DNA from: Clostridiales bacterium
Lineage (GTDB): Bacteria; Bacillota; Clostridia; Christensenellales; CAG-138
Assembly (NCBI GenBank): GCA_918244965.1
Contig: CAKJYC010000016.1
Coordinates: forward strand, 8,526-72,525
DNA length: 64,000 nucleotides
Direction: 5' to 3'
The position numbers and the translations under genes were made by a program. The notes beneath the pieces are model-generated. The model was not told the origin of the DNA. It saw nothing but the letters and a program-made list of their open reading frames with translations, and did no database searches. Of the stretch, positions 1 to 29,294 are shown in pieces (within the stretch, counting starts at the first letter, position 1; each line of letters begins with the position of its first letter).

Positions 1-33
1 CGCAAGCGCGCAATCGACAAGGCCGCAGGCGTC

Positions 34-639
34 GTGAAGCCTCCGCTGTATAAGCGCATCCCGAAGCCCGTGATCGCGCTGACGATCATCGCCGCGCTCG
101 CGGGACTCGCGCTGTCCGGCGTGTTCTCAATGACCAAGGGCCCGATCGAGGCCAACGAAGAGAAGAAGCAGCAGGCGTCGTTCAGGATCGTCTGTGAGGA
201 CGCCGTCGACTTTGAGCAGCTTGAGGTCCGGGACGGCACCAACTACGGCAGCGGCAAGTTCGGCTCCACAACGATCGAACAGGCGCTGCGTGCCGTCGGT
301 GCAAACGGCGAAACCGCCGGCTACGTGCTCGTCATCTCGAACCGCAACGCCTACAACCCGCCGATCAAGCTGGCGCTCGGCGTCGATCCGGAGGGCCGGG
401 TCAACAGGATCTCGTTCATCGAGATCAACGAAACGCCCGGCAAGGGCTCGCTCGCGGATGAATCCAAGTTCAAGGATCAGTTCAGCGGCAAGCTGGCGGA
501 CAGTTTCGTGCTGAACGGGACCGGTGAAGACGGCATCGACGCGATCAGCGGCGCGACCGTCACCACGAAGGCCGTGCTGAACGCGGTCAACGCGGGTCTC
601 GACTTCTTCCGCAACGTGATCATGGGAGGAGGCAACTGA
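34..639 (+). CDS. rnfG: Rnf electron-transport complex subunit G (FMN-binding)
   Basis: 201-aa ORF with an N-terminal TM helix (PVIALTIIAALAGLALSGVF) and the C-terminal flavin-attachment motif SGATVTTKAV typical of RnfG/NqrC. The GTG start forms a GTGA overlap with a frame-2 stop at 35-37 that probably ends rnfD, which is cut by the window edge. The start is not certain because its own frame stays open to position 1. Confidence 0.85.
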   Translation: MKPPLYKRIPKPVIALTIIAALAGLALSGVFSMTKGPIEANEEKKQQASFRIVCEDAVDFEQLEVRDGTNYGSGKFGSTTIEQALRAVGANGETAGYVLVISNRNAYNPPIKLALGVDPEGRVNRISFIEINETPGKGSLADESKFKDQFSGKLADSFVLNGTGEDGIDAISGATVTTKAVLNAVNAGLDFFRNVIMGGGN

Positions 640-640
640 T

Positions 641-1327
641 ATGAAAAATCCGTATGTTGAACGGCTGTACAACGGCCTCGTCAAGGAGAACCCGACGCTG
701 GTGCTGATGCTCGGCATGTGCCCGACGCTGGCGGTCTCGACCGCGGCGATCAACGGCATTTCGATGGGTCTTTCGACGCTGGCGGTCCTCGTGCTGTCGA
801 ACTTTTTGATCTCGGTCATGCGCAACGTGATCCCGGACGACGTTCGCCTCCCCGCCTACATCGTCATCGTCGCGTCGCTCGTCACCGTTGTCAAGCTGCT
901 GATCAAGGCGTATCTGCCTTCGGTCGACGAAGCGCTCGGCACCTACATCGACCTGATCGTGGTCAACTGCATCATCCTCGGCCGCGCCGAAGCGTACGCG
1001 AACAAGCATACGCCGGGGCTGTCGGTCATGGACGGCGTCGGCATGGGCCTCGGCTTCACCGTTGCGCTGACGCTTGCGGGTCTCTTGCGCGAGCTCCTCG
1101 GCGCAGGCACAGTGTTCGGCCTGACCGTCTTCCCGCAGGAATACGCGATCGGCATCATGATCCAGCCGCCGGGAGCGTTCCTCGTCATCGCGCTGTTCAT
1201 CATCATCATGAATGCGATCGGCATCAAGACGCGCCAGCGTCAGCTCGTCGAAAGCGACGGCTGCGACGGCTGCTGCTACAAGTGCGCCATGCGCTGTGAA
1301 GATGCAAAGAAGGAGGAAGAGAAATGA
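641..1327 (+). CDS. rnfE: Rnf complex subunit E (polytopic membrane protein) with an extra Cys-rich C-terminal tail
   Basis: 228 aa. The N-terminus NGLVKENPTLVLMLGMCPTLAVS and multiple TM helices match the RnfE/NqrD family. It starts 1 nt after the rnfG stop. The tail is DGCDGCCYKCAMRCED. Confidence 0.9.
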   Translation: MKNPYVERLYNGLVKENPTLVLMLGMCPTLAVSTAAINGISMGLSTLAVLVLSNFLISVMRNVIPDDVRLPAYIVIVASLVTVVKLLIKAYLPSVDEALGTYIDLIVVNCIILGRAEAYANKHTPGLSVMDGVGMGLGFTVALTLAGLLRELLGAGTVFGLTVFPQEYAIGIMIQPPGAFLVIALFIIIMNAIGIKTRQRQLVESDGCDGCCYKCAMRCEDAKKEEEK

Positions 1328-1932
1328 TCCGCTTAATTCTGATCGTCATTCTGAACGCGCTGATCTCCAACGTCGTTCTCAATCAGTTCCTCGGCATCTG
1401 CTCGTTCCTCGGCGTTTCGCAGCGGATCAAGGCGTCGGCGTCGCTCGGCGGCGCGGTCATCTTCGTTCTGACGATCGCCTCCGCCGTTGCAAGCGCGCTG
1501 TATTCCCTCGTTCTGGAGCCGCTCGGCATGTCGTTCATGAAGATGATCGTCTTTATCCTCGTCATCGCCGCGCTGGTGCAGATCGTCGAGATGTTCCTCA
1601 AGAAAAAATCGCCTGCGGTCTATAAATCGCTCGGCATCTACCTCCCGCTGATCACCACCAACTGCGCGGTGCTCGGCATTGCGATCGACAACATCGACAA
1701 GTTCGGCTACAACTTCATCGAGAGTGTGTTCTCCGGCTTCGGCACGGCGATCGGCTACACGATCGCGATCGTGCTGCTCGCGGGCATTCGCTCGCGTCTC
1801 ACGGAGGACGACATCCCCCGTCCCGTTCGCGGCGCACCGGTCGTCATGCTCGCGGCGGCGCTGATGTCCATCGCATTCATGGGCTTTGCCGAGCTGCAGC
1901 CCGCGGTCGAAACGATCCTGAAGGGGGTGTAA
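1324..1932 (+). CDS. rnfA: Rnf complex subunit A
   Basis: 202-aa hydrophobic protein (NQFLGICSFLGVS, LPLITTNCAVLG) typical of RnfA/NqrE. ATGA overlap with rnfE. Confidence 0.9.
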   Translation: MIRLILIVILNALISNVVLNQFLGICSFLGVSQRIKASASLGGAVIFVLTIASAVASALYSLVLEPLGMSFMKMIVFILVIAALVQIVEMFLKKKSPAVYKSLGIYLPLITTNCAVLGIAIDNIDKFGYNFIESVFSGFGTAIGYTIAIVLLAGIRSRLTEDDIPRPVRGAPVVMLAAALMSIAFMGFAELQPAVETILKGV

Positions 1933-1934
1933 GC

Positions 1935-2744
1935 ATGATTATTCTGATCACCACCCTCGTCATCACCGCCATCGGCATTATCGTCGGCGCGGGGCTCGTG
2001 TTCACGGGCAAGAAGTTCCATGTCCCGGTCGATGCGCGCGAATCCGAAGTCCGCGCGTGTCTGCCCGGCAACAACTGCGGCGCATGCGGCTTTGCCGGCT
2101 GTGACGCGGCCGCGGCGGCCATCGTCGCAGGCGACGCGCCGGTAAACGTCTGCCCCGTGGGCGGCGGTCCGGTCGCGGAAAAGATCGGCGGCATCATGGG
2201 CACCGATGCGGAGATCCTTGAACGCCGGGTCGCGTTCGTCCGCTGCAAGGGCACCTGCGAGGCGTCCGGTCTGCAGGGCGTCTACACCGGGATCCGCGAC
2301 TGCCGCGCGGCGGCGCTTGCGGGGATCAATCTGAAGAACTGCGACTACGGCTGCATGGGCCTCGGCTCGTGCGTGAACGTCTGTCCGCAGGGCGCGATCA
2401 CGCTCGTCGACGGCGTCGCGGTCGTGAACCGCAACAAATGCGTCGCGTGCGGACTGTGCGTGAAGGCCTGTCCGAAGGGGCTCATCGAGCTCGTGCCGGA
2501 AAGCAAGCACGTCGCCGTACAGTGCATGAACCGGGACAAGGGCCCGCAGGTCAAGAAGGTCTGCTCCGCCGGCTGCATCGGCTGTACGCTGTGCACGCGC
2601 CAGTGCCAGTTTGACGCGATCCATATGGACGGCAATCTCGCACGCATCGACTACGCGAAGTGCGAGCAGTGCGGCAAGTGCGCGGAGAAATGCCCGGTCG
2701 GCGTCATCACGCCGCCCTGCCCCGCCGTACGGAAGGAGGCATAA
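1935..2744 (+). CDS. rnfB: Rnf complex subunit B (polyferredoxin)
   Basis: 269 aa with an N-terminal TM helix, the CGACGFAGC motif and several CxxCxxCxxxC(P) 4Fe-4S motifs (CVACGLCVKACP, CEQCGKCAEKCP). Confidence 0.9.
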   Translation: MIILITTLVITAIGIIVGAGLVFTGKKFHVPVDARESEVRACLPGNNCGACGFAGCDAAAAAIVAGDAPVNVCPVGGGPVAEKIGGIMGTDAEILERRVAFVRCKGTCEASGLQGVYTGIRDCRAAALAGINLKNCDYGCMGLGSCVNVCPQGAITLVDGVAVVNRNKCVACGLCVKACPKGLIELVPESKHVAVQCMNRDKGPQVKKVCSAGCIGCTLCTRQCQFDAIHMDGNLARIDYAKCEQCGKCAEKCPVGVITPPCPAVRKEA

Positions 2745-2747
2745 GCC

Positions 2748-4082
2748 ATGGAAAAACGCAATCAGGCTGCAAAGCTCATCGTCGGCGCGGTCGTCGTCAT
2801 CATCGCCGTGCTGTTCCTGTCCGGCGTCGTCGGCGGACATGACGTCAAGTACAAGTCCGCTCCGCTTTCGAGCGAGGACATCGCGTACAAGACGGTCGAA
2901 GCGCCGGTACCCGCTGCGAAGAACGGGATCATCAGCTCCGACGAATGGAAGGCGATCTATCCCGACATCGTGACGACCATGTACCAAAACGACGAGAACG
3001 ACGAGATCGTTGACTATCTGGAGATCGACCCGTATCTGCTCGACATCTACGACGGCTTCGGCTTCGCGACAGAATACGGCAGCGCACGCGGTCACACATA
3101 TACGCTGGATGACGTGAACAACACCCATCGCCCGCACGGCAGCGCAAACTGTCTCACCTGCAAGACGCCGTACTTCAACCGGCTTGCGGAGAACGGCAAC
3201 GTCGACGCGTACACCTATGATTTCAACGAAGTCATGGAAGCGCTGCGCAAGGACGGCGGCGAGGCGGTCAGCTGCTACACCTGCCACGGCAACGAGGCGG
3301 GCAGCAAGGGACAGATCGTCATCACACATTCCTATGTGCCCAAGGCGCTCGGTGCGGATTTCGCCGGGATCGACCTGTCCACGCTCTCCTGCGGACAGTG
3401 CCACATCGAGTACTACTTCAACAAGCAGGAGCTGAAGGCGGACGGCAAGCCCACGATGGAAACGTCAATGCCGTATCACAACGTCTCGGAGATGACGCCG
3501 GAAGCGATCTACGACTACTATGAGGCCATCGGCTATACGGACTGGGAGCAGAAGAGCACCGGGACGAAGATGCTGAAGGCGCAGCACCCCGAACTGGAGA
3601 CGTACCTCCAGGGCGTGCATGCCGGAACGCTTTCCTGCGCCGACTGCCATATGCCGGTCGTACAGAACGCCGAGACGCAGGAGATCTACCACAGCCACCT
3701 GATCGTGAGCCCGCTCAACAATAAGACGCTGCTGGAAACCTGCCTCGTGTGTCACAAGGACCTCGGCATCCGCACGACGGACGACATGGTGCAGTTCGTC
3801 AAAAACATTCAGGCGAACGTCACGGCGGAGGAAACGCGCGTCGGCAACCTGCTCGCCGCATTCAAGAAGGCGCTCGAAAAGGAGCACCAGAGCGGAACGC
3901 GGACCGACGAACAGCTCGATCCGATCCGCGCGCTGTATCGCAAGGCGCAGTGGTTCTTTGACTTCTGTTACGTCGAGAACGCCGAAGGCGCGCACAACTC
4001 CGCGCTCGCGTACCGCTGCCTTTCCACGGCGGAGCAGCTGATCAACGAGGGCATGGCGAAGCTCGCCGCGCTCAACGATTAA
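2748..4082 (+). CDS. nrfA: Pentahaem cytochrome c nitrite reductase (ammonia-forming), membrane-anchored
   Basis: 444 aa with an N-terminal hydrophobic anchor (LIVGAVVVIIAVLFLSGVVGG). Five haem c sites: CLTCK (the CXXCK catalytic haem that marks NrfA), CYTCH, CGQCH, CADCH and CLVCH. NrfA signature strings CHIEYYF and KAQHPELE are present. The GGAAGGAGG RBS lies inside the rnfB 3' end and the ATG is 3 nt after the rnfB stop. Confidence 0.9.
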   Translation: MEKRNQAAKLIVGAVVVIIAVLFLSGVVGGHDVKYKSAPLSSEDIAYKTVEAPVPAAKNGIISSDEWKAIYPDIVTTMYQNDENDEIVDYLEIDPYLLDIYDGFGFATEYGSARGHTYTLDDVNNTHRPHGSANCLTCKTPYFNRLAENGNVDAYTYDFNEVMEALRKDGGEAVSCYTCHGNEAGSKGQIVITHSYVPKALGADFAGIDLSTLSCGQCHIEYYFNKQELKADGKPTMETSMPYHNVSEMTPEAIYDYYEAIGYTDWEQKSTGTKMLKAQHPELETYLQGVHAGTLSCADCHMPVVQNAETQEIYHSHLIVSPLNNKTLLETCLVCHKDLGIRTTDDMVQFVKNIQANVTAEETRVGNLLAAFKKALEKEHQSGTRTDEQLDPIRALYRKAQWFFDFCYVENAEGAHNSALAYRCLSTAEQLINEGMAKLAALND

Positions 4083-4095
4083 ACAGCCATCTACC

Positions 4096-4134
4096 TGCGG
4101 CAAAGGGCGCTGACCCTTTGCCGCATCCTTTTAT
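4096..4134 (+). terminator. Hairpin plus T-rich tail between nrfA and resB (terminator or attenuator)
   Basis: Perfect 12-bp stem TGCGGCAAAGGG/CCCTTTGCCGCA with a 6-nt loop, followed by TCCTTTTAT. Confidence 0.55.
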
Positions 4135-4143
4135 GGGGTCAAA

Positions 4144-5409
4144 ATGAAGGTTCTGAAAAAGATTTACGGGTTCATCGCGTCGATGAGATTCGCGATCGTT
4201 CTGCTGCTGGTGATCGCCGCCGTCTGTGTGGTCGGCAGCCTTGTGCCGCAGGGCGAACAGTTTGCGCTGTACCGCGGCACATATTCCGAGCGCACGGCAG
4301 CGTTTATTCTTGCGTTCGGGCTCGACGACGTGTTCCACAGCTGGTGGTTCATCACGCTTGTCGCCGCGCTGTGCCTGAGCCTTGTACTGTGCAATCTCAC
4401 CCGCGTGCGCGCGCTGATCCGTAAAACGAAGGAAGCCGCAAGCGTCGGGCACGCGCTGTCCTCTTCGCCGGACGCGACGGAGGAGGGCGTTGTCGATCCT
4501 GCGCCGGTGTTCCGGCGGATGCGCTTCTATCGCACGGTCCAAAGCGAAGCCGACGGCAAACCGGTCGTCTTTGCCTGCCGCAACCGGATCGGCTTCTGGG
4601 GCGCGTGGGTCTGCCACATCGGGATCGTGCTGATCGTGCTGGGCTACGCGCTCGGTCAAATGACGCTGTTCTCCGCGACCGTGTACGGTACGCCGGGACA
4701 GATCAAGCCGGTCGAGGGCACGCCGTTCGAAGCGATGATCACGGACTTTGCGATCGACCGCACCGAGACGGGCTTTGTCGAGCAGTACACGACCGCGCTG
4801 ACCGTGCAAAACACCGGGACCGGCGAGAAGCAGAGCGGTACCGCAAGCGTCAACCATCCGGCGGTGCTCTGCGGCATGAAGTTTTATCAGACTGCGTCCG
4901 GCTACGCGGCGCGCGTCACGATCCTTGAGGACGGTGTGCCGCTCGAAAGAGCCGATCTGTGCGTCGGCGAGGAGCTGACGATCTCGTTTCTGCCCGGACT
5001 GTCGTTGTATCTCGACGCGTACGAGCCGGATCACAACGGAAGCGGCAGGAGCGCGTTCCACGTCCTGTTCTTCCATCAGGGACAGTACATCGACCTCGGC
5101 GCCGAATACTTTGCTCCGGGCGGTGTGATCAACCTCGGCCGGTACGCGATTGAGCTTTCCGGGCCTCTCGACTACACGCTGCTGCGCGTCAAAAAGGATT
5201 CGTTTGCGTGGCTTGTGCTGATCGGCGCCATACTGACTGCGCTCGGTCTGTTCGCCGCGCTGTATCTCGTACCGGAAACGCTTTGGGCCGTGCGGGAGGA
5301 CGACGGCACGTGGACCGTATGCGGCAGGAGCAAAAAGCTCGCGCCGCTGTTCCGGGAACAATTCACCCGCGCCGTGAGCGGCCGTAAAGGAAAGGAGGCG
5401 GACAAATGA
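4144..5409 (+). CDS. resB: Cytochrome c biogenesis protein ResB/Ccs1 (System II)
   Basis: 421 aa. N-terminal TM helices, a large extracytoplasmic domain and a C-terminal TM helix give ResB-like topology. ATGA overlap with the downstream ccsA-like gene. Confidence 0.75.
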   Translation: MKVLKKIYGFIASMRFAIVLLLVIAAVCVVGSLVPQGEQFALYRGTYSERTAAFILAFGLDDVFHSWWFITLVAALCLSLVLCNLTRVRALIRKTKEAASVGHALSSSPDATEEGVVDPAPVFRRMRFYRTVQSEADGKPVVFACRNRIGFWGAWVCHIGIVLIVLGYALGQMTLFSATVYGTPGQIKPVEGTPFEAMITDFAIDRTETGFVEQYTTALTVQNTGTGEKQSGTASVNHPAVLCGMKFYQTASGYAARVTILEDGVPLERADLCVGEELTISFLPGLSLYLDAYEPDHNGSGRSAFHVLFFHQGQYIDLGAEYFAPGGVINLGRYAIELSGPLDYTLLRVKKDSFAWLVLIGAILTALGLFAALYLVPETLWAVREDDGTWTVCGRSKKLAPLFREQFTRAVSGRKGKEADK

Positions 5410-6257
5410 TCCTTGCGGAAAGCATCCTGTTTCTGATCACGCTCGGACTGTATTTTGTCGCGATGCTTCTGTATTTCCTGTACGCCGCCGTCCGAAAGCC
5501 CGCCCTGCACCGCGCCGCGGTCTGGACGCAGATCGCCGCGTTCGTCATCCACTCGGCGGCGATCGTGCTGCGCGGGATCCTGATGGCGCGTCTGCCGATG
5601 GCGAACCAGTACGAATTCGCCACGGCGTTTGCGTGGGCGCTCGCGGCCGTAAGCCTGTTCTTCATCAAACGGTTCCGCTTCCCGGTGCTCGGTGCGTTCG
5701 CCTCCCCCGTCACGCTGCTGCTTGCGGTCTACGCCGGGCTGCAGAAGCTGAACGAGCTCAAGGTAATCGAGCAGAGCGGTGTCGACAGCATCAAAAACCT
5801 GATGCCCGCGCTCAGAAGCAGCTGGCTCGGCATCCACGTTTCGACGGTCATCATCGCGTACGGCGCGTTCGGCGTATCGTTTGTGCTGTCGATCCTGTTC
5901 CTTGTCCGTGACCGGATGAAGGCAAACGGCTTCTGGGACGCGCATATCCCGAAGAAGGAGAAGCTCGACGTCATCAGCTACCGCTGCGTGTCCTTCGGCA
6001 TGATGTTCCTGACCGTCACGATCGGCATCGGCGGGATCTGGGCGGAAAATGCCTGGGGCAGCTACTGGAGCTGGGACCCCAAGGAGACGTGGGCGCTCGT
6101 CACATGGGTCATCTATCTCGTGTACCTGCACTTGCGCATCAAAAAGGGATGGAACGGCAGGGCCGCCGCGCTCTTCGGCGCGGTCGGGTTCGTCTGTGTG
6201 CTGTTCACCTACATCGGCGTTAACACGCTCCTGCCGGGCCTGCACAGTTATAAATAA
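5406..6257 (+). CDS. resC: Cytochrome c biogenesis protein ResC/CcsA (haem-handling W-rich motif)
   Basis: 283-aa polytopic membrane protein carrying the W-rich motif WGSYWSWDPKETWALVTW, diagnostic of the CcsA/ResC/CcmC family. Confidence 0.85.
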   Translation: MILAESILFLITLGLYFVAMLLYFLYAAVRKPALHRAAVWTQIAAFVIHSAAIVLRGILMARLPMANQYEFATAFAWALAAVSLFFIKRFRFPVLGAFASPVTLLLAVYAGLQKLNELKVIEQSGVDSIKNLMPALRSSWLGIHVSTVIIAYGAFGVSFVLSILFLVRDRMKANGFWDAHIPKKEKLDVISYRCVSFGMMFLTVTIGIGGIWAENAWGSYWSWDPKETWALVTWVIYLVYLHLRIKKGWNGRAAALFGAVGFVCVLFTYIGVNTLLPGLHSYK

Positions 6258-6265
6258 GCAAAATA

Positions 6266-6294
6266 TTGACATAACCATGCAGTTTTGGTATGAT
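6266..6294 (+). promoter_or_regulatory. Sigma-70-type promoter
   Basis: TTGACA (6266-6271), 17-nt spacer, TGgTATGAT extended -10 (TATGAT at 6289-6294). GAGGAGG RBS at 6311-6317 ahead of the ATG at 6326. Confidence 0.6.
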
Positions 6295-6325: not shown

Positions 6326-6970
6326 ATGTCGATTCAGATGCGGGAATACCGGAATCCCAACAACAGCAACTTGCCGCTGCGCGTGGCAAAGGGACACTTC
6401 GCGACCAGCCACAGCCACATCAACTACTATGTGGACCTGACCATGACCAAGTATTGTCTGCCCGAAGCGCGCGAGGCGGCGATCCATCTGGCGAACCGGT
6501 TTAAGGCGACCACGATCGTCGACACGATCCTCTGTCTCGACGGCACCGAGGTCATCGGCGCGTGCATGGCGAGCGAGCTCACCAAGCAGAGCTTTACGAG
6601 CATGAACGCCAACCGCGCGATTTGCGTCGTCACGCCGGAGCACACGACCGGCAGTCAGCTGCTGTTCCGCGACAACACCGCCCCGATGATCCGCGGCAAG
6701 AACGTGCTGATCCTTGCGGCGTCCGTCTCCACGGGCTTCACGGCGCTCGGCGCGATCGAGGCGATCCGCTACTACGGCGGCAACACGGTCGGCATCTGCG
6801 CGATCATCGCAAACATCAAGGAGCTTGCGGGCTACTCCGTCGTCGGCATCTGCGACACCAATCGCCTTTGGGACGATTACGAAAGCAATCCCGCCCACGA
6901 ATGTCCGCTGTGCAAAGCCGGCGTCAAGCTGGACGCCATGGTCAATACGTATGGTTTCAGCAGTTTTTAA
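6326..6970 (+). CDS. Phosphoribosyltransferase-fold protein with a degenerate PRPP loop
   Basis: 214 aa with type-I PRTase-like layout. The PRPP-binding loop reads VLILAASVSTGFT, so the usual acidic pair (DD/ED) is replaced by AA. C-terminal CPLC. Confidence 0.5.
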   Translation: MSIQMREYRNPNNSNLPLRVAKGHFATSHSHINYYVDLTMTKYCLPEAREAAIHLANRFKATTIVDTILCLDGTEVIGACMASELTKQSFTSMNANRAICVVTPEHTTGSQLLFRDNTAPMIRGKNVLILAASVSTGFTALGAIEAIRYYGGNTVGICAIIANIKELAGYSVVGICDTNRLWDDYESNPAHECPLCKAGVKLDAMVNTYGFSSF

Positions 6971-6976
6971 GAAATA

Positions 6977-7000
6977 AAGCGCCTTTCGGGGCGCTTTTCT
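6977..7000 (+). terminator. Rho-independent terminator
   Basis: AGCGCC/GGCGCT stem followed by TTTTCT, directly after the stop at 6970. Confidence 0.6.
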
Positions 7001-7030
7001 TGTAAAAAACAACACAAGGAGGAAACAAGT

Positions 7031-7405
7031 ATGGAAATGAAGTTCTATCGCTGCCCGATCTGCGGCCAGATCATTGCGATCGTCAAAAAGACGGCGTGCC
7101 CGGTCATGTGCTGCGGCAAGCCCATGAAGGAAATGGAGCCCGGCGAAGTCGACGCGTCGCTGGAAAAGCACGTCCCGGTCTATGAGGTCAGCGGCGATAC
7201 GGTCGTCGTCAAGGTCGGCTCGGCCGCGCACCCGATGCTGCCGGAGCACTACATCCCCTGGATCGCGATCCAGACCAAGCTCGGCAATCAGAGAAAGGCG
7301 CTCGAACCCGGTCAGGCGCCGGAGGTCTGCTTCAAGCTCTGCGAGGGCGACGAGGTCGAGGCCGTCTACGCCTTCTGCAATCTGCACGGGCTCTGGAAAA
7401 GCTGA
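7031..7405 (+). CDS. dfx: Desulfoferrodoxin (superoxide reductase)
   Basis: 124 aa. The N-terminal desulforedoxin-type site is CPICG...CCG and the EKHVP motif begins the SOR domain. AGGAGG RBS 8 nt upstream. Confidence 0.85.
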   Translation: MEMKFYRCPICGQIIAIVKKTACPVMCCGKPMKEMEPGEVDASLEKHVPVYEVSGDTVVVKVGSAAHPMLPEHYIPWIAIQTKLGNQRKALEPGQAPEVCFKLCEGDEVEAVYAFCNLHGLWKS

Positions 7406-7414
7406 GGAGGCTCC

Positions 7415-7951
7415 ATGAACAAGTATACCGGAACAAAGACCGAACAGAACCTGCTTGCCGCGTTCGCGGGCGAATCGCAGGCGCGCAACAAGTATACCTA
7501 CTTTGCGTCGAGAGCAAAGAAGGACGGCTATGAGCAGATCGCCGCGCTGTTTCTGAAGACGGCGGACAACGAGAAGGAACACGCCAAGCTGTGGTTCAAG
7601 GAGCTGAACGGCATCGGCGACACCGCCGAAAACCTCAAGGCCGCTGCAGACGGCGAAAACTACGAATGGACCGACATGTACGAGGGCTTTGCGAAAACCG
7701 CTGAGGAGGAGGGCTTTGCGGAGCTTGCCGAGAAGTTCCGTCTGGTCGCCGCGATCGAAAAGCACCACGAGGAGCGCTATCGCGCGCTGCTCAAGAACAT
7801 CGAGACCGCCGCCGTCTTTGAAAAGAGCGAGGTCAAGGTCTGGGAATGCCGCAACTGCGGCCATATCGTGATCGGCACGAAAGCGCCGGACGTCTGCCCC
7901 GCCTGCGCGCACCCGCAGTCCTTCTTCGAGGTCAACGCGGAAAACTATTGA
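7415..7951 (+). CDS. rbr: Rubrerythrin
   Basis: 178 aa. The N-terminal di-iron four-helix region is [19 protein letters not shown] and the C-terminal rubredoxin-like motif is CRNCG...CPAC. Confidence 0.9.
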
Positions 7952-14745: not shown

Positions 14746-14783
14746 GATCCCCCCGGAGCGATCCGAGGGGATCTGTTTTTTTA
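14746..14783. terminator. Bidirectional terminator between the lipoprotein gene and mnmE
   Basis: GATCCCC...GGGGATC stem followed by TGTTTTTTTATTTT, with an A-rich run upstream. Confidence 0.65.
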
Positions 14784-16088
14784 TTTTCCGACGCAGAAGT
14801 TCGCAAAGATCCGGTCGATAACCTCGGCGTCGACGTCCGTGCCGGTGATCGTGCCGAGCGTGTGCAGCGCGTCAGAGAGGTCCGTTGCGATGCAGTCCGG
14901 TTCGGTCTGCGTCTCAGCATGCACAATCGCGTCCAGCGCCGCCTCCAGCGCGCGGATGTGACGCTCGTTGGTGATCGCCGCCGTCGACTGCGCGGCGGGC
15001 GTTGCGAGCGCGGCGATCTCCGCCTTCAGCTTGTCAAGCCCCGCGCCGGTTTTGCAGCTGACGGGAAGCGCATCGGAAACGATCGTGCCGAGATCGCTTT
15101 TGTTCGCAATCACAATGCACGTTTTCTCCCCGGTCTCTCTGCGCAGCTGCAGGTCCTCCGCCGTCTCCGGTTCGCTGCCGTCGAGCACCAGCAGTACCGC
15201 GTCCGCCGTTTCCAGTGCTTTTTTCGCGCGATCGACGCCGATGCGTTCCGCTTCGTCGCTCGCCTCCCGGACGCCTGCTGTGTCTATGAGCCGCACGGGC
15301 ACGCCGCCGACCGACAGCCGCTCGTCCAGCACGTCGCGCGTGGTGCCCGCCGTTGCGGTCACGATCGCGCGGTCCTCGCCCAAAAGCGCGTTCAATAGCG
15401 AGCTCTTGCCAACGTTCGGTCGGCCGAGGATGACGAGCTTCAGTCCTTCGCGCAGCACGCGGGCCCTGCGGCCTTCCTCGATCAGGGCGCGGACCGTCGT
15501 TTCCGATTGCGCCAGCATGGCAGGAAGCGATGCGTACGCGGCCTCTCCGGCCTCGTCCGGATAGTCGATCGCGGCCTCGATCGCGGAGCGCGCGTTGAGG
15601 AGCGTTTCCTCGACCGTGCGGATGCGGCGGCTGACGCTGCCGGACAGCTGTTCCAGAGCGCTCTTCAGGCTGCTTTCGGCCTGCGCGTTGATGACGTCCA
15701 TGACCGCCTCGGCTTCCGAGAGGTCCATCTTGCCGTTCAGAAACGCGCGTTTGGTGAACTCGCCGGGGTCCGCGGGCACGCCGCCCGCCTCGGACAGCGC
15801 GGACAGCACGCTGCGCACGGTCTCGGACCCGCCGTGACAGTGCAGCTCCAGCATGTCCTCGCCGGTATAGCTGTTCGGCGCGGCGAAAAAGACCGCCATC
15901 GCGTCGTCGATCACATCCGATCCGTGCAGGATCTTCACATGAAGCAGCCGACCGGGACGGTCTGTGATCTTGCGGTGCAGGATCTGCTTTGTGATGGCGC
16001 GCGTATCGGGACCGGAGACGCGGATCACGCAGATCGCGCCGCCGATCGCAGACGAAGGGGCAAATACGGTGTCAAAGGTCTGGTTCAT
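14781..16088 (-). CDS. mnmE: tRNA modification GTPase MnmE
   Basis: 435 aa. G1 motif GRPNVGKSS, G3 motif DTAG, and the C-terminal CVGK tetrapeptide characteristic of MnmE/TrmE. Confidence 0.92.
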   Translation of the reverse strand: MNQTFDTVFAPSSAIGGAICVIRVSGPDTRAITKQILHRKITDRPGRLLHVKILHGSDVIDDAMAVFFAAPNSYTGEDMLELHCHGGSETVRSVLSALSEAGGVPADPGEFTKRAFLNGKMDLSEAEAVMDVINAQAESSLKSALEQLSGSVSRRIRTVEETLLNARSAIEAAIDYPDEAGEAAYASLPAMLAQSETTVRALIEEGRRARVLREGLKLVILGRPNVGKSSLLNALLGEDRAIVTATAGTTRDVLDERLSVGGVPVRLIDTAGVREASDEAERIGVDRAKKALETADAVLLVLDGSEPETAEDLQLRRETGEKTCIVIANKSDLGTIVSDALPVSCKTGAGLDKLKAEIAALATPAAQSTAAITNERHIRALEAALDAIVHAETQTEPDCIATDLSDALHTLGTITGTDVDAEVIDRIFANFCVGK

Positions 16089-16175
16089 AATAGCATCCTA
16101 TAAAAACAGAGAAACAATGCGACTGACGGATCATTTCCAAACATGCGCGCTGTTTCTCATTTCTGTTTCTTCCGA

Positions 16176-16372
16176 TTGACGATATGCCGCGCTGCGGCAC
16201 GATATATTTACTGCGTAAATACGATATACGGCTGCGGGGCACCGTGAGACGTCGCCCCCTGCGCCGCACGATATGATATAAATCCCTGTGCACCGCAGTG
16301 CATATCGTGTCAAGGACATATCGCGCCCCGAAGGGGCATATCGCAGATCCCGCAGGGATTTATATCGTTGAC
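16176..16372. repeat. Self-complementary element: 4 ACGATAT motifs (plus strand), then 4 ATATCG motifs (the same motif inverted), interleaved with short hairpins and bounded by TTGAC direct repeats
   Basis: ACGATAT at 16179, 16199, 16221 and 16268. ATATCG at 16302, 16318, 16338 and 16362. Tri/tetraloop hairpins lie between the motifs (GCCGCgctGCGGC, ATTTACtgcGTAAAT, TGCACcgcaGTGCA, GCCCCgaaGGGGC). A perfect 14-bp long-range inverted repeat, GATATAAATCCCTG (16275-16288) / CAGGGATTTATATC (16352-16365). TTGAC at 16176-16180 and 16368-16372. Confidence 0.6.
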
Positions 16373-16376
16373 GAAG

Positions 16377-17207
16377 TCACCTGTCCGGCGTGATGATCAC
16401 GCGGCGGTTCGGCTCCTCGCCCTCGCTGTGCGTCGTGACGCCCTTGAAGCCCTGCAGCGCGGAGTGCAGCACACGGCGCTCGTACGGGTTCATCGGCTCC
16501 ATTGCGACGGAGCGGCCGGTCCGCGCGACCTGCGCGGCGTTCTTGCGCGCAAGGCGTCTGAGCGTTTCCTCGCGGCGGGCACGATAGCCCTCGGTGTCGA
16601 CGGAGACACGGCGATATCCGTTCTCCTTGCGGTCCTTGTTCATGTACAGGGACACGATGTACTGCAGCGCATCGAGCGTTTCGCCTCTGCGGCCGATCAG
16701 AAGCCCGTCGGTTGCGGAAACGATGTTGAGCCGGAGACCGTCCTCGGTCTCCGCCGCCTCGACGGTCGCTTCGATCTTCATGTTCTTCAGAAGGTCGGAG
16801 AGGAAGATTGCGGCGTCGTTTTCCTTCGCCAGTTCCTCGCTGTATGCGAACGCGGGTGCTGCCGGCTGTTTTTCACGGCGCTCGCCGCCCTCACGGCGAT
16901 CGCTGCGCGGCTTGCGGTCGTTGCGCTCGCGGCGCTCGCCGTCCCGCTTCGGGCGATCGTTCTCACGCTTCGGGCGCTCGCTCTTATGCTCGTGCGCAGC
17001 CGCACGCTCTGCTTCAAAATCCGGAACCACGGGGACCTCGCGCTCGGTCAGACGCACGATCGCGTTTTTGGCGCCGATGCCGAACAGGCCCTTGCTTTCC
17101 TTCTGTACGATCTCCGTATCGACCTCGTCGATCGTCAGCCCCATCTCGTTGAGACCGTGAAAGATCGCCTCGTCGATGTTGCGGCCGGAGAATTCCATAC
17201 TTCTCAT
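16377..17207 (-). CDS. jag: RNA-binding protein Jag/KhpB (Jag-N, KH, R3H domains)
   Basis: 276 aa. The N-terminus GRNIDEAIFHGLNEMGLTIDEVDTEIV is Jag_N-like, followed by a Lys/Arg/Glu-rich linker and a C-terminal R3H region (MNPYERRVLHSAL). ATGA overlap with yidC. Confidence 0.85.
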   Translation of the reverse strand: MRSMEFSGRNIDEAIFHGLNEMGLTIDEVDTEIVQKESKGLFGIGAKNAIVRLTEREVPVVPDFEAERAAAHEHKSERPKRENDRPKRDGERRERNDRKPRSDRREGGERREKQPAAPAFAYSEELAKENDAAIFLSDLLKNMKIEATVEAAETEDGLRLNIVSATDGLLIGRRGETLDALQYIVSLYMNKDRKENGYRRVSVDTEGYRARREETLRRLARKNAAQVARTGRSVAMEPMNPYERRVLHSALQGFKGVTTHSEGEEPNRRVIITPDR

Positions 17208-18310
17208 TTCTTGATTACCTCCACAGCTTCCTGTTGCATTTTCTTAAAGACCGTCGCGTTCAGGATCAGGGTAACCGCAAGCGAAATGACATTGCTGAAG
17301 ATCCAGTAGAACGCAAAGGTCGAGTCGTACTGATAGCAGAAGAAGATCGACATCGCAGGCATCAGGAACATCATAACCTTGCCCATGCTCTTGGACTGCG
17401 CCGCGGGATTGTTTTTGTCGTCCGTGCCCTTCTTCGTCAGCTTTTCCTGACTGCGCTGGGTGATCCATGAAGTCAGGAACGTCGTTGCGCCTGCGAGGAT
17501 CGGCAGGATCGCGTAGCCGTTTGACATGTTTTCGAACGCGCCGCCGATCAGCTCCGTGTTGGATGCGATCGGCTGGATGAACACCTCATACGCCGTCTTG
17601 AACGCAGCGCCGCCGTCGTTGGCGATCACATACTGCACCGTGCCGTCCTCGGCGAACGTCTTGGTAAAGAAGTGCAGCTCATACAGGACTCTGTTCAGCG
17701 CTTCCGTGTTGTTGTTGTAGAAGATGAAGTCCTTGACATCCGATCCGGCTGCAAACGTGGTCCAGAAGGACTGTGCGTTCATCAGCGTGCCGCCGCGCGC
17801 AAGGTTGTCCGGACGCCAGATGTTGGTGATCCAGAGGAAGCGCGAGCGCGCAAAGGTCTCGATCGCGTCCGCGTTGAACGCAAGCTGATTGACCGCCGGG
17901 TTGTAGTCGGATTTCAGGATCAGCGCAAGCGCCTGCTGATTCGACCATGCGCGGAACGCCGCAAAGAACATGAACAGCAGCGGCATCATGATGAGCATCG
18001 GCAGACAGCCGCCGAGCGTGCTGACGCCCTTCTCCTTCATGAGCTTTCTCTGCTCCATATTGAGCTTCTGCGGATCGTTGCCGTATTTCTTCTTGAGCCG
18101 CTCAATGTCCGGCTGGATCGCCTGCATCTGGATCGAAGACTTACGGGATTTGATGTCGGAAAAGATCGTCAGCAGCTTGATGCTGAGCGTGAAGAGGAAG
18201 ATCGTCAGAACGACGACCCATCCGCCTTCGGAAAACAGACTGCACATCTGCCGATAGACCCAGTCCATCGCCATAAACAGCCATTTAACAAGGAAAAAGG
18301 ATGAATTCAT
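17204..18310 (-). CDS. yidC: Membrane protein insertase YidC/SpoIIIJ
   Basis: Start set at MNSSFFLVKWLF (ATGA overlap with the yidD stop at 18307). Conserved YidC core (GGCLPMLIMMPLLFMFF). The 56-codon upstream extension in the ORF track overlaps yidD and is rejected. Confidence 0.85.
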   Translation of the reverse strand: MNSSFFLVKWLFMAMDWVYRQMCSLFSEGGWVVVLTIFLFTLSIKLLTIFSDIKSRKSSIQMQAIQPDIERLKKKYGNDPQKLNMEQRKLMKEKGVSTLGGCLPMLIMMPLLFMFFAAFRAWSNQQALALILKSDYNPAVNQLAFNADAIETFARSRFLWITNIWRPDNLARGGTLMNAQSFWTTFAAGSDVKDFIFYNNNTEALNRVLYELHFFTKTFAEDGTVQYVIANDGGAAFKTAYEVFIQPIASNTELIGGAFENMSNGYAILPILAGATTFLTSWITQRSQEKLTKKGTDDKNNPAAQSKSMGKVMMFLMPAMSIFFCYQYDSTFAFYWIFSNVISLAVTLILNATVFKKMQQEAVEVIKK

Positions 18311-21483: not shown

Positions 21484-23034
21484 ATGAATCATCTTACGGA
21501 AAACATTCATCATGTCGTACTGGACGGCGAACAGCTTTGCATCGAGCAGGTCGTTGCGGTCGCGCGCTTTCACGCGACGGTTTCGCTCTCGCCCGACACC
21601 TTTGCGCGCATCGACGCGTCGCGCGCGCTGGTCGACAAAATCGTTGCGGAGGGGCGCACGGTCTACGGCATCTCCACCGGCTTCGGCGAGTTCAGCAAAA
21701 TCACGATCTCAAGCGACAAGAGCGCACAGCTTCAGGAGAATCTGATCCTCTCCCACTGCGTCGCCGTCGGCGAACCGCTGAACGAGGAGACCGTCCGCGC
21801 CATGATGCTGCTGCGGGCCAACGCGCTTTCAAAGGGCAATTCCGGCATTCGCCGCGAGCTCATTGAGACGTTGATCGGCATGCTGAACGCAGGCGTGCAT
21901 CCGGTCATCCCGGAGCAGGGATCTCTCGGCGCGTCCGGCGATCTCGCACCGCTTGCGCATATGGCGCTGGTGCTTTTGGGCCGCGGTGAAGCGTTTTATA
22001 AAGGCGAACGCATGTCCGGCGCCGAGGCGATGAAACAGGCGGGACTTCCGACCTTCCACCTGCTTGCGAAGGAGGGCCTGGCGCTAATCAACGGCACGCA
22101 GTGCATGACGGCGATCGGCACGCTGGCATGGTACGATCTGCACCGCGCGGCCGAGCTTGCGGACATCACCGCGTCGCTCTCGCTGCAGGCGCTGACCGGG
22201 CTGCTGTCGGCGTTCGATCCGCGCATTCATGCGGTGCGTCCGCATGCGGGTCAGAGCCTCGTCGCAAAGAACATTCGGCTGCTCTCGGAAAACAGCCCGT
22301 CGATGGAGCGCAACCGGAGCTTACGCGTACAGGACGCATATGCGCTGCGCTGCATTCCGCAGGTGCACGGCGCGGTGCGCGACGCGCTTGCGCATGTCCG
22401 CCGCGTGCTGGAGACCGAGCTGAACTCCGTGACCGACAACCCGATCCTGTTCCTCGACGATGAAAGCGTCATTTCCGGCGGCAACTTCCACGGCGAGCCG
22501 ATCGCGCTCGTGATGGATTATCTGTCCTGCGCAGCCGCGGAGCTTTCCAACATCTCCGAGCGGCGCACCGAGCGCATGGTAAACCCGACGCTTTCTAACG
22601 GCCTGCCCGCGTTTTTAGCTCCCGACGGCGGCATCAATTCGGGCTACATGATCTGCCAGTATTCCGCAGCTTCGCTCGTGAGCGAGAACAAGGTCTTTGC
22701 GCATCCGGCAAGCGTCGACTCGATCCCCTCCTCCGCGAATCAGGAGGATCACGTTTCGATGGGTACGACCGCCGCACGCAACTGCCGCCGCATCGTGAAC
22801 AACCTTTTCTCCGTGCTCGCGTTCGAGCTGATGGCGGCGGTGCAGGGCATCGACCTGCGCAAAAATGTCGAACTGTCTCCCGCACAGCAGGGCGTCTACG
22901 ACCGCGTCCGCGCCGTCGTGCCGTTCTATGCGAAGGACGACGAGATCCACCCGATGATTGAGGCGATGAACAAGCTCATTCGCACCGGCGCGCTGGAAAA
23001 CAGCGTGAAAACGGCGCTTCCCGATTTTGACTGA
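21484..23034 (+). CDS. hutH: Histidine ammonia-lyase
   Basis: MIO-forming motif GSLGASGDLAPLAHMA. ATG at 21484 after a GGAAGGA RBS (the track start at 21463 is a TTG extension). Confidence 0.93.
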   Translation: MNHLTENIHHVVLDGEQLCIEQVVAVARFHATVSLSPDTFARIDASRALVDKIVAEGRTVYGISTGFGEFSKITISSDKSAQLQENLILSHCVAVGEPLNEETVRAMMLLRANALSKGNSGIRRELIETLIGMLNAGVHPVIPEQGSLGASGDLAPLAHMALVLLGRGEAFYKGERMSGAEAMKQAGLPTFHLLAKEGLALINGTQCMTAIGTLAWYDLHRAAELADITASLSLQALTGLLSAFDPRIHAVRPHAGQSLVAKNIRLLSENSPSMERNRSLRVQDAYALRCIPQVHGAVRDALAHVRRVLETELNSVTDNPILFLDDESVISGGNFHGEPIALVMDYLSCAAAELSNISERRTERMVNPTLSNGLPAFLAPDGGINSGYMICQYSAASLVSENKVFAHPASVDSIPSSANQEDHVSMGTTAARNCRRIVNNLFSVLAFELMAAVQGIDLRKNVELSPAQQGVYDRVRAVVPFYAKDDEIHPMIEAMNKLIRTGALENSVKTALPDFD

Positions 23035-23055
23035 TATTTCTTTAAGGAGGATTCT

Positions 23056-25056
<2,001 letters not shown>

Positions 25057-25069
25057 AGGAGACAATACT

Positions 25070-25966
25070 ATGGCAAAAATCATGGAATGTATTCCGAACA
25101 TCAGCGAAGGCCGCAGACTCGATCTCGTCGAGGAATTTGCGGACATCGTGCGCGCCGTTCCGGGCGTCACGCTCATCGACTACTCCTCCGACGCGAGCCA
25201 CAACCGCTCCGTGTTCACCTTCCTCGGCGATCCCGATCAGGTCGTGGAGGCAGCGTTCCGCTTTGCGCAGCACGCGGTCGAAAAGATCGACCTTCGCGTG
25301 CATGAAGGCGAACATCCGCGCATGGGCGCAGTCGACGTCATTCCGTTCGTGCCGATCCGCGATATGGATATGGCGGAGTGCGTGGAGCTCTCGAAAAAAC
25401 TCGGCGAACGGCTCGCAAATGAGCTGGATCTGCCGGTGTTCCTGTATGAGGAAAGCGCGTCCGCACCGCACCGCAAGAACCTCGCCGCGATCCGCAAGGG
25501 TCAGTTTGAGGGCATGGCGGCAAAAGTTTTAGAGGATCAGTGGCATCCCGATTTCGGCGGCAACCGCATTCACCCGTCCGCGGGCGTCGTGGCCGTCGGC
25601 GCGCGTCAGCCTTTGATCGCGTTCAACATCAACCTCGACACCTCCGACGTCGGAATCGCCAAGAAGATCGCAAAGATCATCCGTGAGAAGGACGGTGGCT
25701 TCCGCGCAGTCAAGGCGCTCGGCGTCATACTGGAGGAGCGCAACATCGCACAGGTCTCGATCAACATGTGCGACTATAAGCAGACGCCGCTGTACCGCGT
25801 GTTGGAGTTCGTCCGCTTCGAGGCGGCGCGCTATGGCGTGCACGTCGTCGGCACCGAGATCATCGGGCTTGCGCCGATGATGGCGTTCGTCGACGCGGCG
25901 GACTACTATCTGCAGATCGAGAAATTCGACGCGGCAAAACAGGTATTGGAGTGCCATCTGCTGTGA
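25070..25966 (+). CDS. Glutamate formimidoyltransferase
   Basis: 298 aa. The N-terminus MECIPNISEGRR and overall length match the FtcD N-terminal (formiminotransferase) domain. Confidence 0.88.
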   Translation: MAKIMECIPNISEGRRLDLVEEFADIVRAVPGVTLIDYSSDASHNRSVFTFLGDPDQVVEAAFRFAQHAVEKIDLRVHEGEHPRMGAVDVIPFVPIRDMDMAECVELSKKLGERLANELDLPVFLYEESASAPHRKNLAAIRKGQFEGMAAKVLEDQWHPDFGGNRIHPSAGVVAVGARQPLIAFNINLDTSDVGIAKKIAKIIREKDGGFRAVKALGVILEERNIAQVSINMCDYKQTPLYRVLEFVRFEAARYGVHVVGTEIIGLAPMMAFVDAADYYLQIEKFDAAKQVLECHLL

Positions 25967-29199: not shown

Positions 29200-29210
29200 A
29201 CAATCTTTCA

Positions 29211-29236
29211 AAAACCGCCCTTCCGGGCGGTTTTTG
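29211..29236 (+). terminator. Rho-independent terminator
   Basis: CCGCCC/GGGCGG stem (loop TTCC) followed by TTTTT. Confidence 0.75.
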
Positions 29237-29294
29237 TGTATCACTTTTGGAGTTTGAACTGTCTTAACAGACAGAACCCGAAAGGAGCAAGGTT

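Follow-up and report, generated by a model that had tools for sequence, protein, structure and literature searches.

How does an ammonia-forming nitrite reductase obtain its electrons when it is encoded directly after the last subunit gene of an Rnf ferredoxin:NAD+ complex, and no NrfH or other quinol-linked haem partner lies nearby? This question is raised by a 64-kb stretch of DNA (hereafter the window), in which the rnf genes, nrfA, resB and ccsA lie head to tail on the same strand (Table 1). An earlier note had proposed that Rnf may be the partner or electron donor of this NrfH-less NrfA, or that the two are at minimum co-expressed. Our analysis supports that hedged inference, as it survived the tests against it that could be run. 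We found the same pairing in a large group of uncultured rumen Clostridia, in some lineages as a fused protein, and Rnf is probably the electron donor of NrfA, although electron flow itself is inferred. In the literature we searched, we found no description of such a module.

Table 1. Features of the rnf-nrfA-resB-ccsA cluster, with positions in the window
Positions	Strand	Feature	Support
1..639	+	3' part of a fused rnfDG gene, which runs off the window start; the RnfG moiety has one TM helix and an FMN-binding domain with the flavinylation motif SGAT	Pfam FMN_bind E 1e-15; TIGR01947 rnfG 90 bits, below its cutoff of 102; PDB RnfG 9ERI_G E 2.7e-19
641..1327	+	rnfE	Pfam Rnf-Nqr E 1e-61; TIGR01948 229.5, above its cutoff of 213.4
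1324..1932	+	rnfA, 4-nt overlap with rnfE	Pfam Rnf-Nqr E 7e-55; TIGR01943 233.7, above its cutoff of 229.3
1935..2744	+	rnfB, full-length clostridial type: N-terminal TM helix, FeS domain and polyferredoxin; stop TAA at 2742-2744	Pfam FeS plus Fer4 domains; TIGR01944 above its cutoff; PDB 9ERI_B E 7.5e-70 and 7ZC6_B E 1.7e-68, covering residues 4-268
2731..2739	+	Shine-Dalgarno sequence of nrfA, inside the rnfB coding sequence	GGAAGGAGG, 8 nt before the ATG at 2748
2748..4082	+	nrfA, pentahaem ammonia-forming nitrite reductase with an N-terminal signal-anchor	PF02335 E 3e-76; PDB NrfA 3UBR, 1FS7, 1GU6 and 2J7A at E 1e-39 to 1e-43, over residues 60-442 only
2748..2945	+	NrfA residues 1-66: basic tail MEKRNQAAK, a 21-residue hydrophobic helix, then a clade-conserved linker (GPL[T/S]RxDIxYxxVxAP...DGTxxAxDW)	Absent from the soluble NrfA chains aligned in the PDB search, whose alignments begin only at residue 60-87; linker conserved across about 80 loci
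4096..4134	+	Stem-loop plus short U-tract between nrfA and resB: a terminator, attenuator or mRNA-stabilising hairpin	Hairpin at 4096-4125 with 12 pairs, followed by UCCUUUUAU; folding energy -25.9 kcal/mol, z-score -3.3
4144..5409	+	resB (ccs1), system II cytochrome c biogenesis	Pfam ResB (PF05140) E 1e-54
5406..6257	+	ccsA/resC, system II haem-handling subunit	PF01578 E 1e-52; TIGR03144 243.5, above its cutoff of 187.6
6266..6294	+	Promoter-like site of the next gene, marking the 3' boundary of the cluster	TTGACA-17-TATGAT with an extended-10 TG, 11 of 12 matches

The features described in the earlier note are confirmed, with two corrections. The note had called a separate rnfG, but the frame is open from base 1, and residues 1-11 match the RnfD-RnfG linker of a related locus (L014; L-numbers designate related loci throughout). 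RnfD and RnfG are fused in 69 of 69 related loci, and the GTG at position 34 is therefore not the start codon. The note had also placed nrfA as the last cistron, whereas resB and ccsA follow 61 nt later, after the hairpin. A strong hairpin at the same place, with different stem sequences, is present in most related loci, and resB lies downstream of nrfA in most of them, although three loci (L024, L026 and L086) lack resB-ccsA next to nrfA. No promoter-like site separates rnfB from nrfA, and the only strong one lies after ccsA. The nrfA gene starts 3 nt after the rnfB stop codon, in the same reading frame, and a GGAGG-type site at the position of its Shine-Dalgarno sequence is visible in most of the junction sequences inspected. 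RnfC (Complex1_51K plus RnfC_N) and most of RnfD lie outside the window, but both lie directly upstream in homologous loci, so that all six Rnf subunit types are accounted for. The flavinylation motif reads SGATVT within the FMN_bind domain, and RnfB aligns end to end with 7ZC6_B and 9ERI_B.

NrfA carries the expected five haem sites, the first of them of the Lys-ligated CXXCK type: CLTCK 135-139, CYTCH 176-180, CGQCH 215-219, CADCH 297-301 and CLVCH 332-336. These motifs, together with R114, H116, E221, Y222, K277, Q279 and H280, are invariant in the alignment of the clade. The latter residues align to the same motifs in 3UBR (RGH, EYY, KxQH; here CHIEYYF and KAQHPE) and would correspond to the active-site Arg/Tyr/His and Ca2+-site residues of characterised enzymes. 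AlphaFold2 predicts a helix at residues 2-28, although the model as a whole was poor (pLDDT 60.6). The topology is consistent with an association with Rnf, as the RnfB C-terminus is cytoplasmic and is followed by the basic tail, the hydrophobic helix and an outside catalytic domain of NrfA.

Is this arrangement peculiar to one genome? A scan of one genome per species found 148 genomes with a relative of this NrfA. In the 87 fetched loci that hold nrfA plus upstream sequence, which come from 80 species genomes plus independently sampled contigs, rnfB lies upstream on the same strand in all 87, down to 49% NrfA identity, with a gap of 20 nt or less in 72. This adjacency is far beyond chance, and the conserved block is rnfC-DG-E-A-B-nrfA; genes outside it are not conserved. 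Notably, NrfA is the only ORF with two or more CXXCH motifs in a six-frame scan of the window and within about 10 kb in all 80 species loci. Moreover, one sublineage encodes a single RnfB-NrfA polypeptide of 698-705 aa, seen in at least four 90%-identity clusters, one of them on 18 contigs, while an unfused sibling differs by TAA versus AAA. The fusion is nevertheless confined to that sublineage, as only 1 of 80 species representatives carries it, and in the fused proteins the hydrophobic segment could in principle be cleaved by signal peptidase. Interestingly, some sister rnf operons carry other genes at or near the same place. L089 and L090 lack nrfA and carry apbE after rnfB instead, while a Tat-exported FMN_bind plus FAD_binding_2 (fumarate-reductase-like) enzyme lies inside the operon in L042, which also has nrfA, or directly upstream of rnfC in L090. 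Several extracytoplasmic reductases are thus encoded with this type of Rnf.

Taken together, we consider it more likely than not that the cluster encodes an otherwise standard clostridial Rnf to which a membrane-anchored NrfA has been added as a seventh component, together with the ResB/CcsA machinery needed to attach its five haems. In this scenario, reduced ferredoxin would pass electrons to the RnfB Fe-S clusters, then to the RnfA/E intramembrane [2Fe-2S] cluster, and then to the covalently bound FMN of RnfG, which is on the outer face, mobile and partly exposed (PMC12174285). From there they would enter the NrfA haems, where nitrite plus 6 electrons gives ammonium. NADH could feed the same flavin through RnfC and RnfD, and neither a quinone nor NrfH or NrfBCD would be involved. 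The N-terminal helix of NrfA and the conserved 35-residue linker after it would hold the enzyme against the Rnf complex, a tether that is covalent in the sublineage with the fusion. Physiologically, this would let fermentative rumen Clostridia dump ferredoxin or NADH electrons onto nitrite instead of making H2, and would also detoxify nitrite. Rnf ion pumping may be retained, but sending electrons outward to an external acceptor works against the membrane potential, so energy conservation is uncertain.

Operon co-location alone can reflect co-regulation, and it remains possible, though in our view unlikely, that nrfA-resB-ccsA is a cassette that landed at the 3' end of a housekeeping rnf operon. 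NrfA would then be supplied by a donor encoded elsewhere, such as an NrfH/CymA-type cytochrome, another quinol dehydrogenase or an extracellular shuttle, with Rnf only regenerating NAD+/ferredoxin in parallel. The relatives that carry apbE instead of nrfA show that Rnf works without NrfA, and in one locus, L075, the Rnf proteins are 91-93% identical to those of the window but NrfA is only 49% identical, suggesting cassette exchange. However, against this idea stand an adjacency kept in every informative locus across 49-90% NrfA identity, at translational-coupling distances in most, RnfB-NrfA fusions maintained in one lineage, and the conserved post-helix linker, which suggests a specific docking partner. 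In addition, no other multihaem gene was found within about 10 kb in any of the 80 species loci, whereas nrfH appears normally to adjoin nrfA; these searches did not cover the rest of the genomes.

A further possibility, which we also regard as unlikely, accepts Rnf as the donor but assigns NrfA a main role other than nitrite respiration, as a detoxifier or general electron outlet for NO, hydroxylamine, sulfite or other oxidants at the cell surface, in the way MmcA acts as a conduit. NrfA enzymes are likely able to reduce NO, hydroxylamine and sulfite, no nitrate reductase or nitrite transporter lies in the window or is conserved in the flanks, and desulfoferrodoxin and rubrerythrin genes follow the cluster in the window and in five related contigs; the doubtful energetics of outward electron flow point the same way. 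By contrast, all residues specific to nitrite ammonification are invariant, nitrite is available in the rumen from dietary nitrate, and nrfA is abundant and transcribed there, and the two roles are not mutually exclusive. An artefact, a pseudogene or an inactive NrfA-like protein is very unlikely. All related sequences come from metagenome-assembled genomes, and the NrfA of the window, a member of a divergent clade, while scoring 257.5 bits against a Pfam cutoff of 24.1, falls far below the cutoffs of the NCBIfam equivalogs NF008339 (202 against 595) and TIGR03152 (161 against 692). Yet the same arrangement appears in independent assemblies from NCBI, ENA, JGI and Logan, the ORFs are intact, GC3 is uniform at 0.80-0.87 across the cluster, the catalytic residues do not vary and dedicated haem-attachment genes are co-located.

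It is tempting to speculate further, although we hold this only tentatively, that Rnf plus NrfA forms a self-contained, quinone-free respiratory supercomplex, an ion-pumping ferredoxin(/NADH):nitrite oxidoreductase present in well over a hundred species of otherwise fermentative rumen Clostridia. If so, a sizeable part of rumen nrfA, now counted as a marker of H2-driven respiration, would belong to organisms that couple nitrite ammonification directly to fermentation-derived ferredoxin. More generally, the 3' end of this RnfDG-type operon would be a docking site for interchangeable extracytoplasmic reductases, either NrfA or flavinylated fumarate-reductase-like enzymes.

How does this arrangement relate to known systems? 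The NrfHA systems of Wolinella and Desulfovibrio and the NrfABCD system of E. coli share with it the catalytic subunit family, the five haems, the Lys-ligated active site, the Ca site and an extracytoplasmic location. However, no NrfH, NrfB, NrfC or NrfD gene lies in the window or in the 80 neighbourhoods, NrfA carries its own membrane anchor plus a conserved linker, and the donor genes next door are rnf and not a quinol dehydrogenase. The quinone-free Gram-positive anaerobe Natranaerofaba carboxydovora also has an NrfA with one predicted transmembrane helix and no NrfH, and its membrane donor was left unknown (PMC8359318); there, nrfA sits with a truncated nap cluster, not with rnf, and Rnf was not proposed as the donor. 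Rnf variants with multi-flavinylated or multihaem RnfG in Christensenellales, including RnfG-multihaem fusions, and extracytosolic flavinylated reductases (Meheust et al. 2021) embody the idea of a second, outward branch to extracytosolic acceptors at RnfG. Those papers do not mention NrfA or nitrite in connection with Rnf, and here RnfG has a single FMN domain and the acceptor is a separate (or RnfB-fused) NrfA.

Multihaem cytochromes linked to rnf are likewise known. In Desulfovibrio, the rnf operon is preceded by and co-transcribed with the gene for the decahaem cytochrome DhcA, proposed to exchange electrons with Rnf on the periplasmic side (PMC4841214). DhcA is a cytochrome c3-family electron carrier and not an enzyme, is proposed as an input from hydrogenases, and its mutants showed no fitness effect; Desulfovibrio is moreover Gram-negative and has a periplasmic cytochrome pool. 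The closest precedent is MmcA, the multihaem cytochrome c subunit of the Rnf of Methanosarcina acetivorans. MmcA belongs to the NrfA/OTR/HAO superfamily, is encoded in the rnf operon universally within its clade, as NrfA is in our 87 loci, and is thought to take electrons from Rnf on the outer face. However, MmcA is a heptahaem, Sec-exported conduit that forms a clade with octahaem tetrathionate reductases, in an analysis where NrfA serves as outgroup. The cytochrome described here is instead a pentahaem NrfA with a CXXCK active site, which occurs in Bacteria, is encoded by the gene after rnfB, is anchored by its own helix, and would itself be the terminal reductase.

In the 64-kb window, seven genes lie head to tail on the + strand, and Pfam and NCBIfam confirm the identity of each: Rnf-Nqr scores E 1e-61 and 7e-55, RnfB has FeS plus Fer4 domains, Cytochrom_C552 scores E 3e-76, ResB E 1e-54 and Cytochrom_C_asm E 1e-52. 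The rnfB stop codon is followed by GCC and then by the nrfA ATG, so that the two genes are in the same frame, three bases apart, with the ribosome-binding site of nrfA, GGAAGGAGG, located inside rnfB. NrfA carries CLTCK plus four CXXCH motifs and is the only ORF in the 64 kb with two or more CXXCH motifs. The rest of the window is ordinary chromosome, with Trk, mnmE-jag-yidC, a histidine utilisation cluster, serpins, which are uncommon in bacteria, and glycoside hydrolases, and it holds no nap, nar, men or cytochrome genes. Rfam and tRNA scans of the window gave no hits. Since mnmE-jag-yidC usually lies next to the replication origin region, the rnf-nrfA cluster would lie about 10-15 kb from it. 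In addition, a 782-aa ORF with no Pfam hit occupies the lowest-GC stretch of the window (GC 0.536 against about 0.60, GC skew -0.14) and may be foreign DNA.

Coordinates of the features in the window and in related loci (L014, L040, L042 and L090 are loci related to that of the window)
Sequence	Position	Strand	Feature
Window	1-639	+	RnfG-type ORF, within the fused rnfDG gene
Window	641-1327	+	rnfE
Window	1324-1932	+	rnfA
Window	1935-2744	+	rnfB
Window	2731-2739		Ribosome-binding site of nrfA
Window	2742-2744	+	rnfB stop codon, TAA
Window	2748-4082	+	nrfA
Window	4096-4125		Stem-loop of 12 bp
Window	4144-5409	+	resB
Window	5406-6257	+	ccsA
Window	6266-6294		Promoter-like site
Window	6326-7951		214-aa protein with a weak phosphoribosyltransferase hit, then desulfoferrodoxin and rubrerythrin genes
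Window	14781-18310	-	mnmE-jag-yidC cluster
Window	21484-27198		Histidine utilisation cluster: aromatic amino acid lyase (HutH type), urocanase, formiminotransferase and an amidohydrolase (possibly hutI)
Window	27874-30536		Two adjacent serpin genes (PF00079) of 441 and 413 aa
Window	40390-42738	-	782-aa ORF with no Pfam hit
L014	6309-7886		Fused RnfD-RnfG ORF
L040	9983-12433		Tandem NrfA-NrfA double-domain protein
L042	6513-9982		tatA, tatC and Tat-signal FMN_bind plus FAD_binding_2 flavoprotein, between rnfB and nrfA
L090	1097-4584		tatA-tatA-tatC and FMN_bind plus FAD_binding_2 flavoprotein, upstream of rnfC

While the observation made in the earlier note is confirmed, two of its details need correction. 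The note treated rnfG as a separate gene; however, its frame is open from the first base of the window, and its first residues (RKRAIDKAAGVV-KPPLYKR) match the linker of a 525-aa fused RnfD-RnfG ORF in L014, which Pfam annotates as NQR2_RnfD_RnfE plus FMN_bind. RnfD and RnfG form one ORF of about 520 aa in 69 of 69 related loci where both are visible. Thus, the window begins inside rnfDG, and rnfC lies upstream of it. The note also described nrfA as the last cistron of the operon, but resB-ccsA follow after 61 nt, and the only strong promoter-like site comes after ccsA. The stem-loop between nrfA and resB, followed by UCCUUUUAU, folds at -25.9 kcal/mol with a z-score of -3.3, and a strong hairpin with lineage-specific stem sequences sits at this place in most related loci, although in a few the gap is only 3-14 nt and holds no hairpin. 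We infer that this hairpin is an intra-operon attenuator or stabiliser, which would set a high rnf-nrfA level and a lower ccs level. Beyond the promoter-like site, the trio formed by the 214-aa protein, desulfoferrodoxin and rubrerythrin, an oxidative or nitrosative stress neighbourhood with its own promoter, also follows the cluster in four related loci (L081, L082, L084 and L085).

To determine whether the adjacency is conserved, we built an alignment of 23 clade members and used it to scan one genome for each of 185,579 species. A relative is encoded in 148 genomes, of which the best 80 were fetched. By their record titles, all 80 are gut MAGs; most titles name a ruminant host or gut compartment or carry rumen-MAG labels (RUG, RGIG), and a few name no host. 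They are labelled Clostridia, Lachnospiraceae, Oscillospiraceae or Christensenellales, while a few are labelled Spirochaetales, Solobacterium or Erysipelothrix, which may reflect binning errors or transfer. Using tblastn with the window proteins, rnfG-E-A-B were found directly upstream of nrfA in 79 of the 80, the remaining contig being too short to tell, and resB-ccsA lie downstream in 76. Three loci (L024, L026 and L086) have nrfA after rnfB but no resB-ccsA downstream, so the haem-attachment genes must lie elsewhere in those genomes. Once the contigs found independently from the Rnf side are added, rnfB precedes nrfA in 87 of 87 informative loci: 1 is fused, 72 have a gap of 20 nt or less, 8 a gap of 21-60 nt, 4 a gap of 61-250 nt, and 2 a gap over 250 nt caused by insertions. 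In 52 of 80 loci rnfB and nrfA are in frame (gaps of 3, 12, 15 or 18 nt), but these cases fall into a few related groups, and the evidence for programmed readthrough is not significant.

NrfA identity to the window ranges from 49% to 82% in the fetched loci, and up to 90% among the protein-database hits. It co-varies with Rnf identity, with Spearman correlations of 0.66 to 0.80 for RnfG, RnfE and RnfB and 0.33 for RnfA. In L075, the locus of a Christensenellales MAG, the Rnf subunits are 91-93% identical to those of the window and CcsA is 84% identical, while NrfA is only 49% and ResB 54% identical, suggesting replacement of nrfA-resB by recombination, or very fast evolution. Genes outside rnfC...ccsA are not conserved: the commonest flanking family occurs in 13 of about 88 loci, and clustering of the flanking genes revealed no conserved nitrate reductase, transporter or regulator. 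Therefore, the block is the conserved unit. Notably, NrfA is the only ORF with two or more CXXCH motifs in all 80 species loci, and no NrfH- or NrfB-like gene accompanies it in these loci. About 100 nt upstream of rnfC, loci L002-L075 carry a conserved sigma-70-like promoter (TTTACA(A), about 17 nt, then TAATCT/TATGCT), followed by a recurrent GTATAC element and a structured 5' leader of about 100 nt; reading these regions by eye, without a motif search, we did not recognise an FNR, HcpR or NsrR box.

Remarkably, the protein search returned RnfB-NrfA single polypeptides of 698-705 aa. They occur in at least four clusters at 90% identity, comprising the protein hits P0118, P0174 and P0175; P0119, P0136 and P0139; P0137, which is on the contig of L027; and P0144 (on 18 contigs) and P0151, and they come from NCBI, ENA and JGI assemblies. 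The linker is ...TRTTAP(A/V)(Q/P)(A/E)(K/E)KGE(E/Q)K-MEKRNQ..., and L034, an unfused sibling, differs only by TAA in place of AAA. Fused and split forms coexist within single clusters; however, only one of the 80 species representatives, L027, is fused. The topology fits, as RnfB aligns end to end with the solved clostridial RnfB chains (7ZC6_B, 9ERI_B), whose Fe-S domains are cytoplasmic, and NrfA then supplies a basic tail, a 21-residue hydrophobic helix and the catalytic domain outside. A different kind of fusion is represented by tandem NrfA-NrfA double-domain proteins, found in L040 and as protein P0004 (774 aa), each with two CXXCK motifs and eight CXXCH motifs behind one N-terminal anchor, which could be a covalent version of the usual NrfA dimer.

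We also sampled the loci from the Rnf side. The closest homologues of fused RnfDG, obtained with two queries, are all fused, and of the nine contigs inspected, seven carry nrfA right after rnfB. The other two do not: L089 has apbE after rnfB, while L090 has apbE after rnfB and also tatA-tatA-tatC and a 693-aa FMN_bind plus FAD_binding_2 enzyme directly upstream of rnfC. Interestingly, L042 has tatA, tatC and the same kind of Tat-signal flavinylated fumarate-reductase-like (fumarate/urocanate-reductase-like) enzyme inserted between rnfB and nrfA. Thus, the Rnf is a normal housekeeping clostridial type that can exist without NrfA, and the fusion of RnfD and RnfG is a lineage trait rather than an NrfA-specific feature, since it also occurs in the nrfA-less operons. 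Moreover, extracytoplasmic reductases are repeatedly encoded in or beside this rnf operon.

Regarding the enzyme itself, PDB NrfA structures match at E 1e-39 to 1e-43, but only from residue 60-87 onwards. The haem motifs and R114, H116, E221, Y222, K277, Q279 and H280 are invariant in the clade, and the protein should therefore be a competent nitrite reductase. Residues 1-66 are extra and comprise a short basic tail, a predicted helix and a linker conserved across the whole clade, GPL(T/S)RxDIxYxxVxAP...DGTxxAxDW. The helix (residues 2-28) was predicted with AlphaFold2 from a 23-sequence alignment, and because this model is otherwise poor (mean pLDDT 60.6) we draw no conclusions from it beyond the N-terminal helix. 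Judged by eye, the residues after the helix do not keep a signal-peptidase -3/-1 pattern (examples are ...VSQ|H and ...LNK|S), so a signal-anchor looks more likely than a cleaved signal.

It has been established that electrons go from RnfB to the intramembrane [2Fe-2S] cluster of RnfA/E and from there to the covalently bound, partly exposed FMN of RnfG on the outer face, after which RnfG swings to RnfD and electrons continue to RnfC and NAD+ (PMC12174285). We infer that NrfA, held at the complex by its helix and linker, taps the RnfG flavin (or the RnfD flavin). In this scenario, ferredoxin, and possibly NADH by the reverse RnfC-RnfD path, would reduce nitrite outside the cell without quinones. 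The driving force is probably large, going from roughly -0.45 V to +0.34 V; however, exporting electrons and consuming protons outside both oppose the membrane potential, and the net gain may be limited to the Na+/H+ pumped at the RnfA/E step. An electron-sink or detoxifying role is at least as likely as true respiration.

This interpretation, which the earlier note had advanced by proposing Rnf as the possible partner or electron donor of NrfA, is supported by comparative genomics but not yet by experiment. We cannot exclude the possibility that nrfA is merely co-expressed with rnf and that its donor is encoded elsewhere, a reading that the incompleteness of the genomes leaves open, but which we consider unlikely, as the fusions, the universal tight linkage and the absence of a nearby cytochrome argue against it. 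It is also possible, although we regard it as somewhat less likely still, that NrfA is fed by Rnf but serves detoxification or as a general electron outlet. An artefact is very improbable.

Every characterised NrfA is fed from the quinol pool by NrfH or NrfBCD, and a direct link from Rnf to NrfA would be a third, quinone-independent route for nitrite ammonification. We found no description of an Rnf-NrfA module in the literature that we searched: a 2025 RNF/NQR review never mentions nitrite, and the flavinylation surveys do not mention NrfA, although they do propose outward-branching Rnf variants, including RnfG-multihaem fusions in Christensenellales. In the rumen, nrfA is abundant and highly transcribed, and is counted as an H2-uptake marker and interpreted as an H2 sink. 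Among the closest precedents, the quinone-free Natranaerofaba has an anchored, NrfH-less NrfA whose donor is called unknown (PMC8359318), and Rnf would offer a candidate answer to the question, raised for Gram-positive, quinone-free ammonifiers, of who donates electrons to such an enzyme. In Desulfovibrio, the precedent is DhcA-rnf, while in Methanosarcina it is MmcA-Rnf, in which MmcA belongs to the OTR/NrfA superfamily. An Rnf with an attached cytochrome is already known, but here the cytochrome would be a terminal nitrite reductase, and a direct link would make this the first bacterial Rnf with an attached terminal reductase, extending the MmcA precedent from Archaea.
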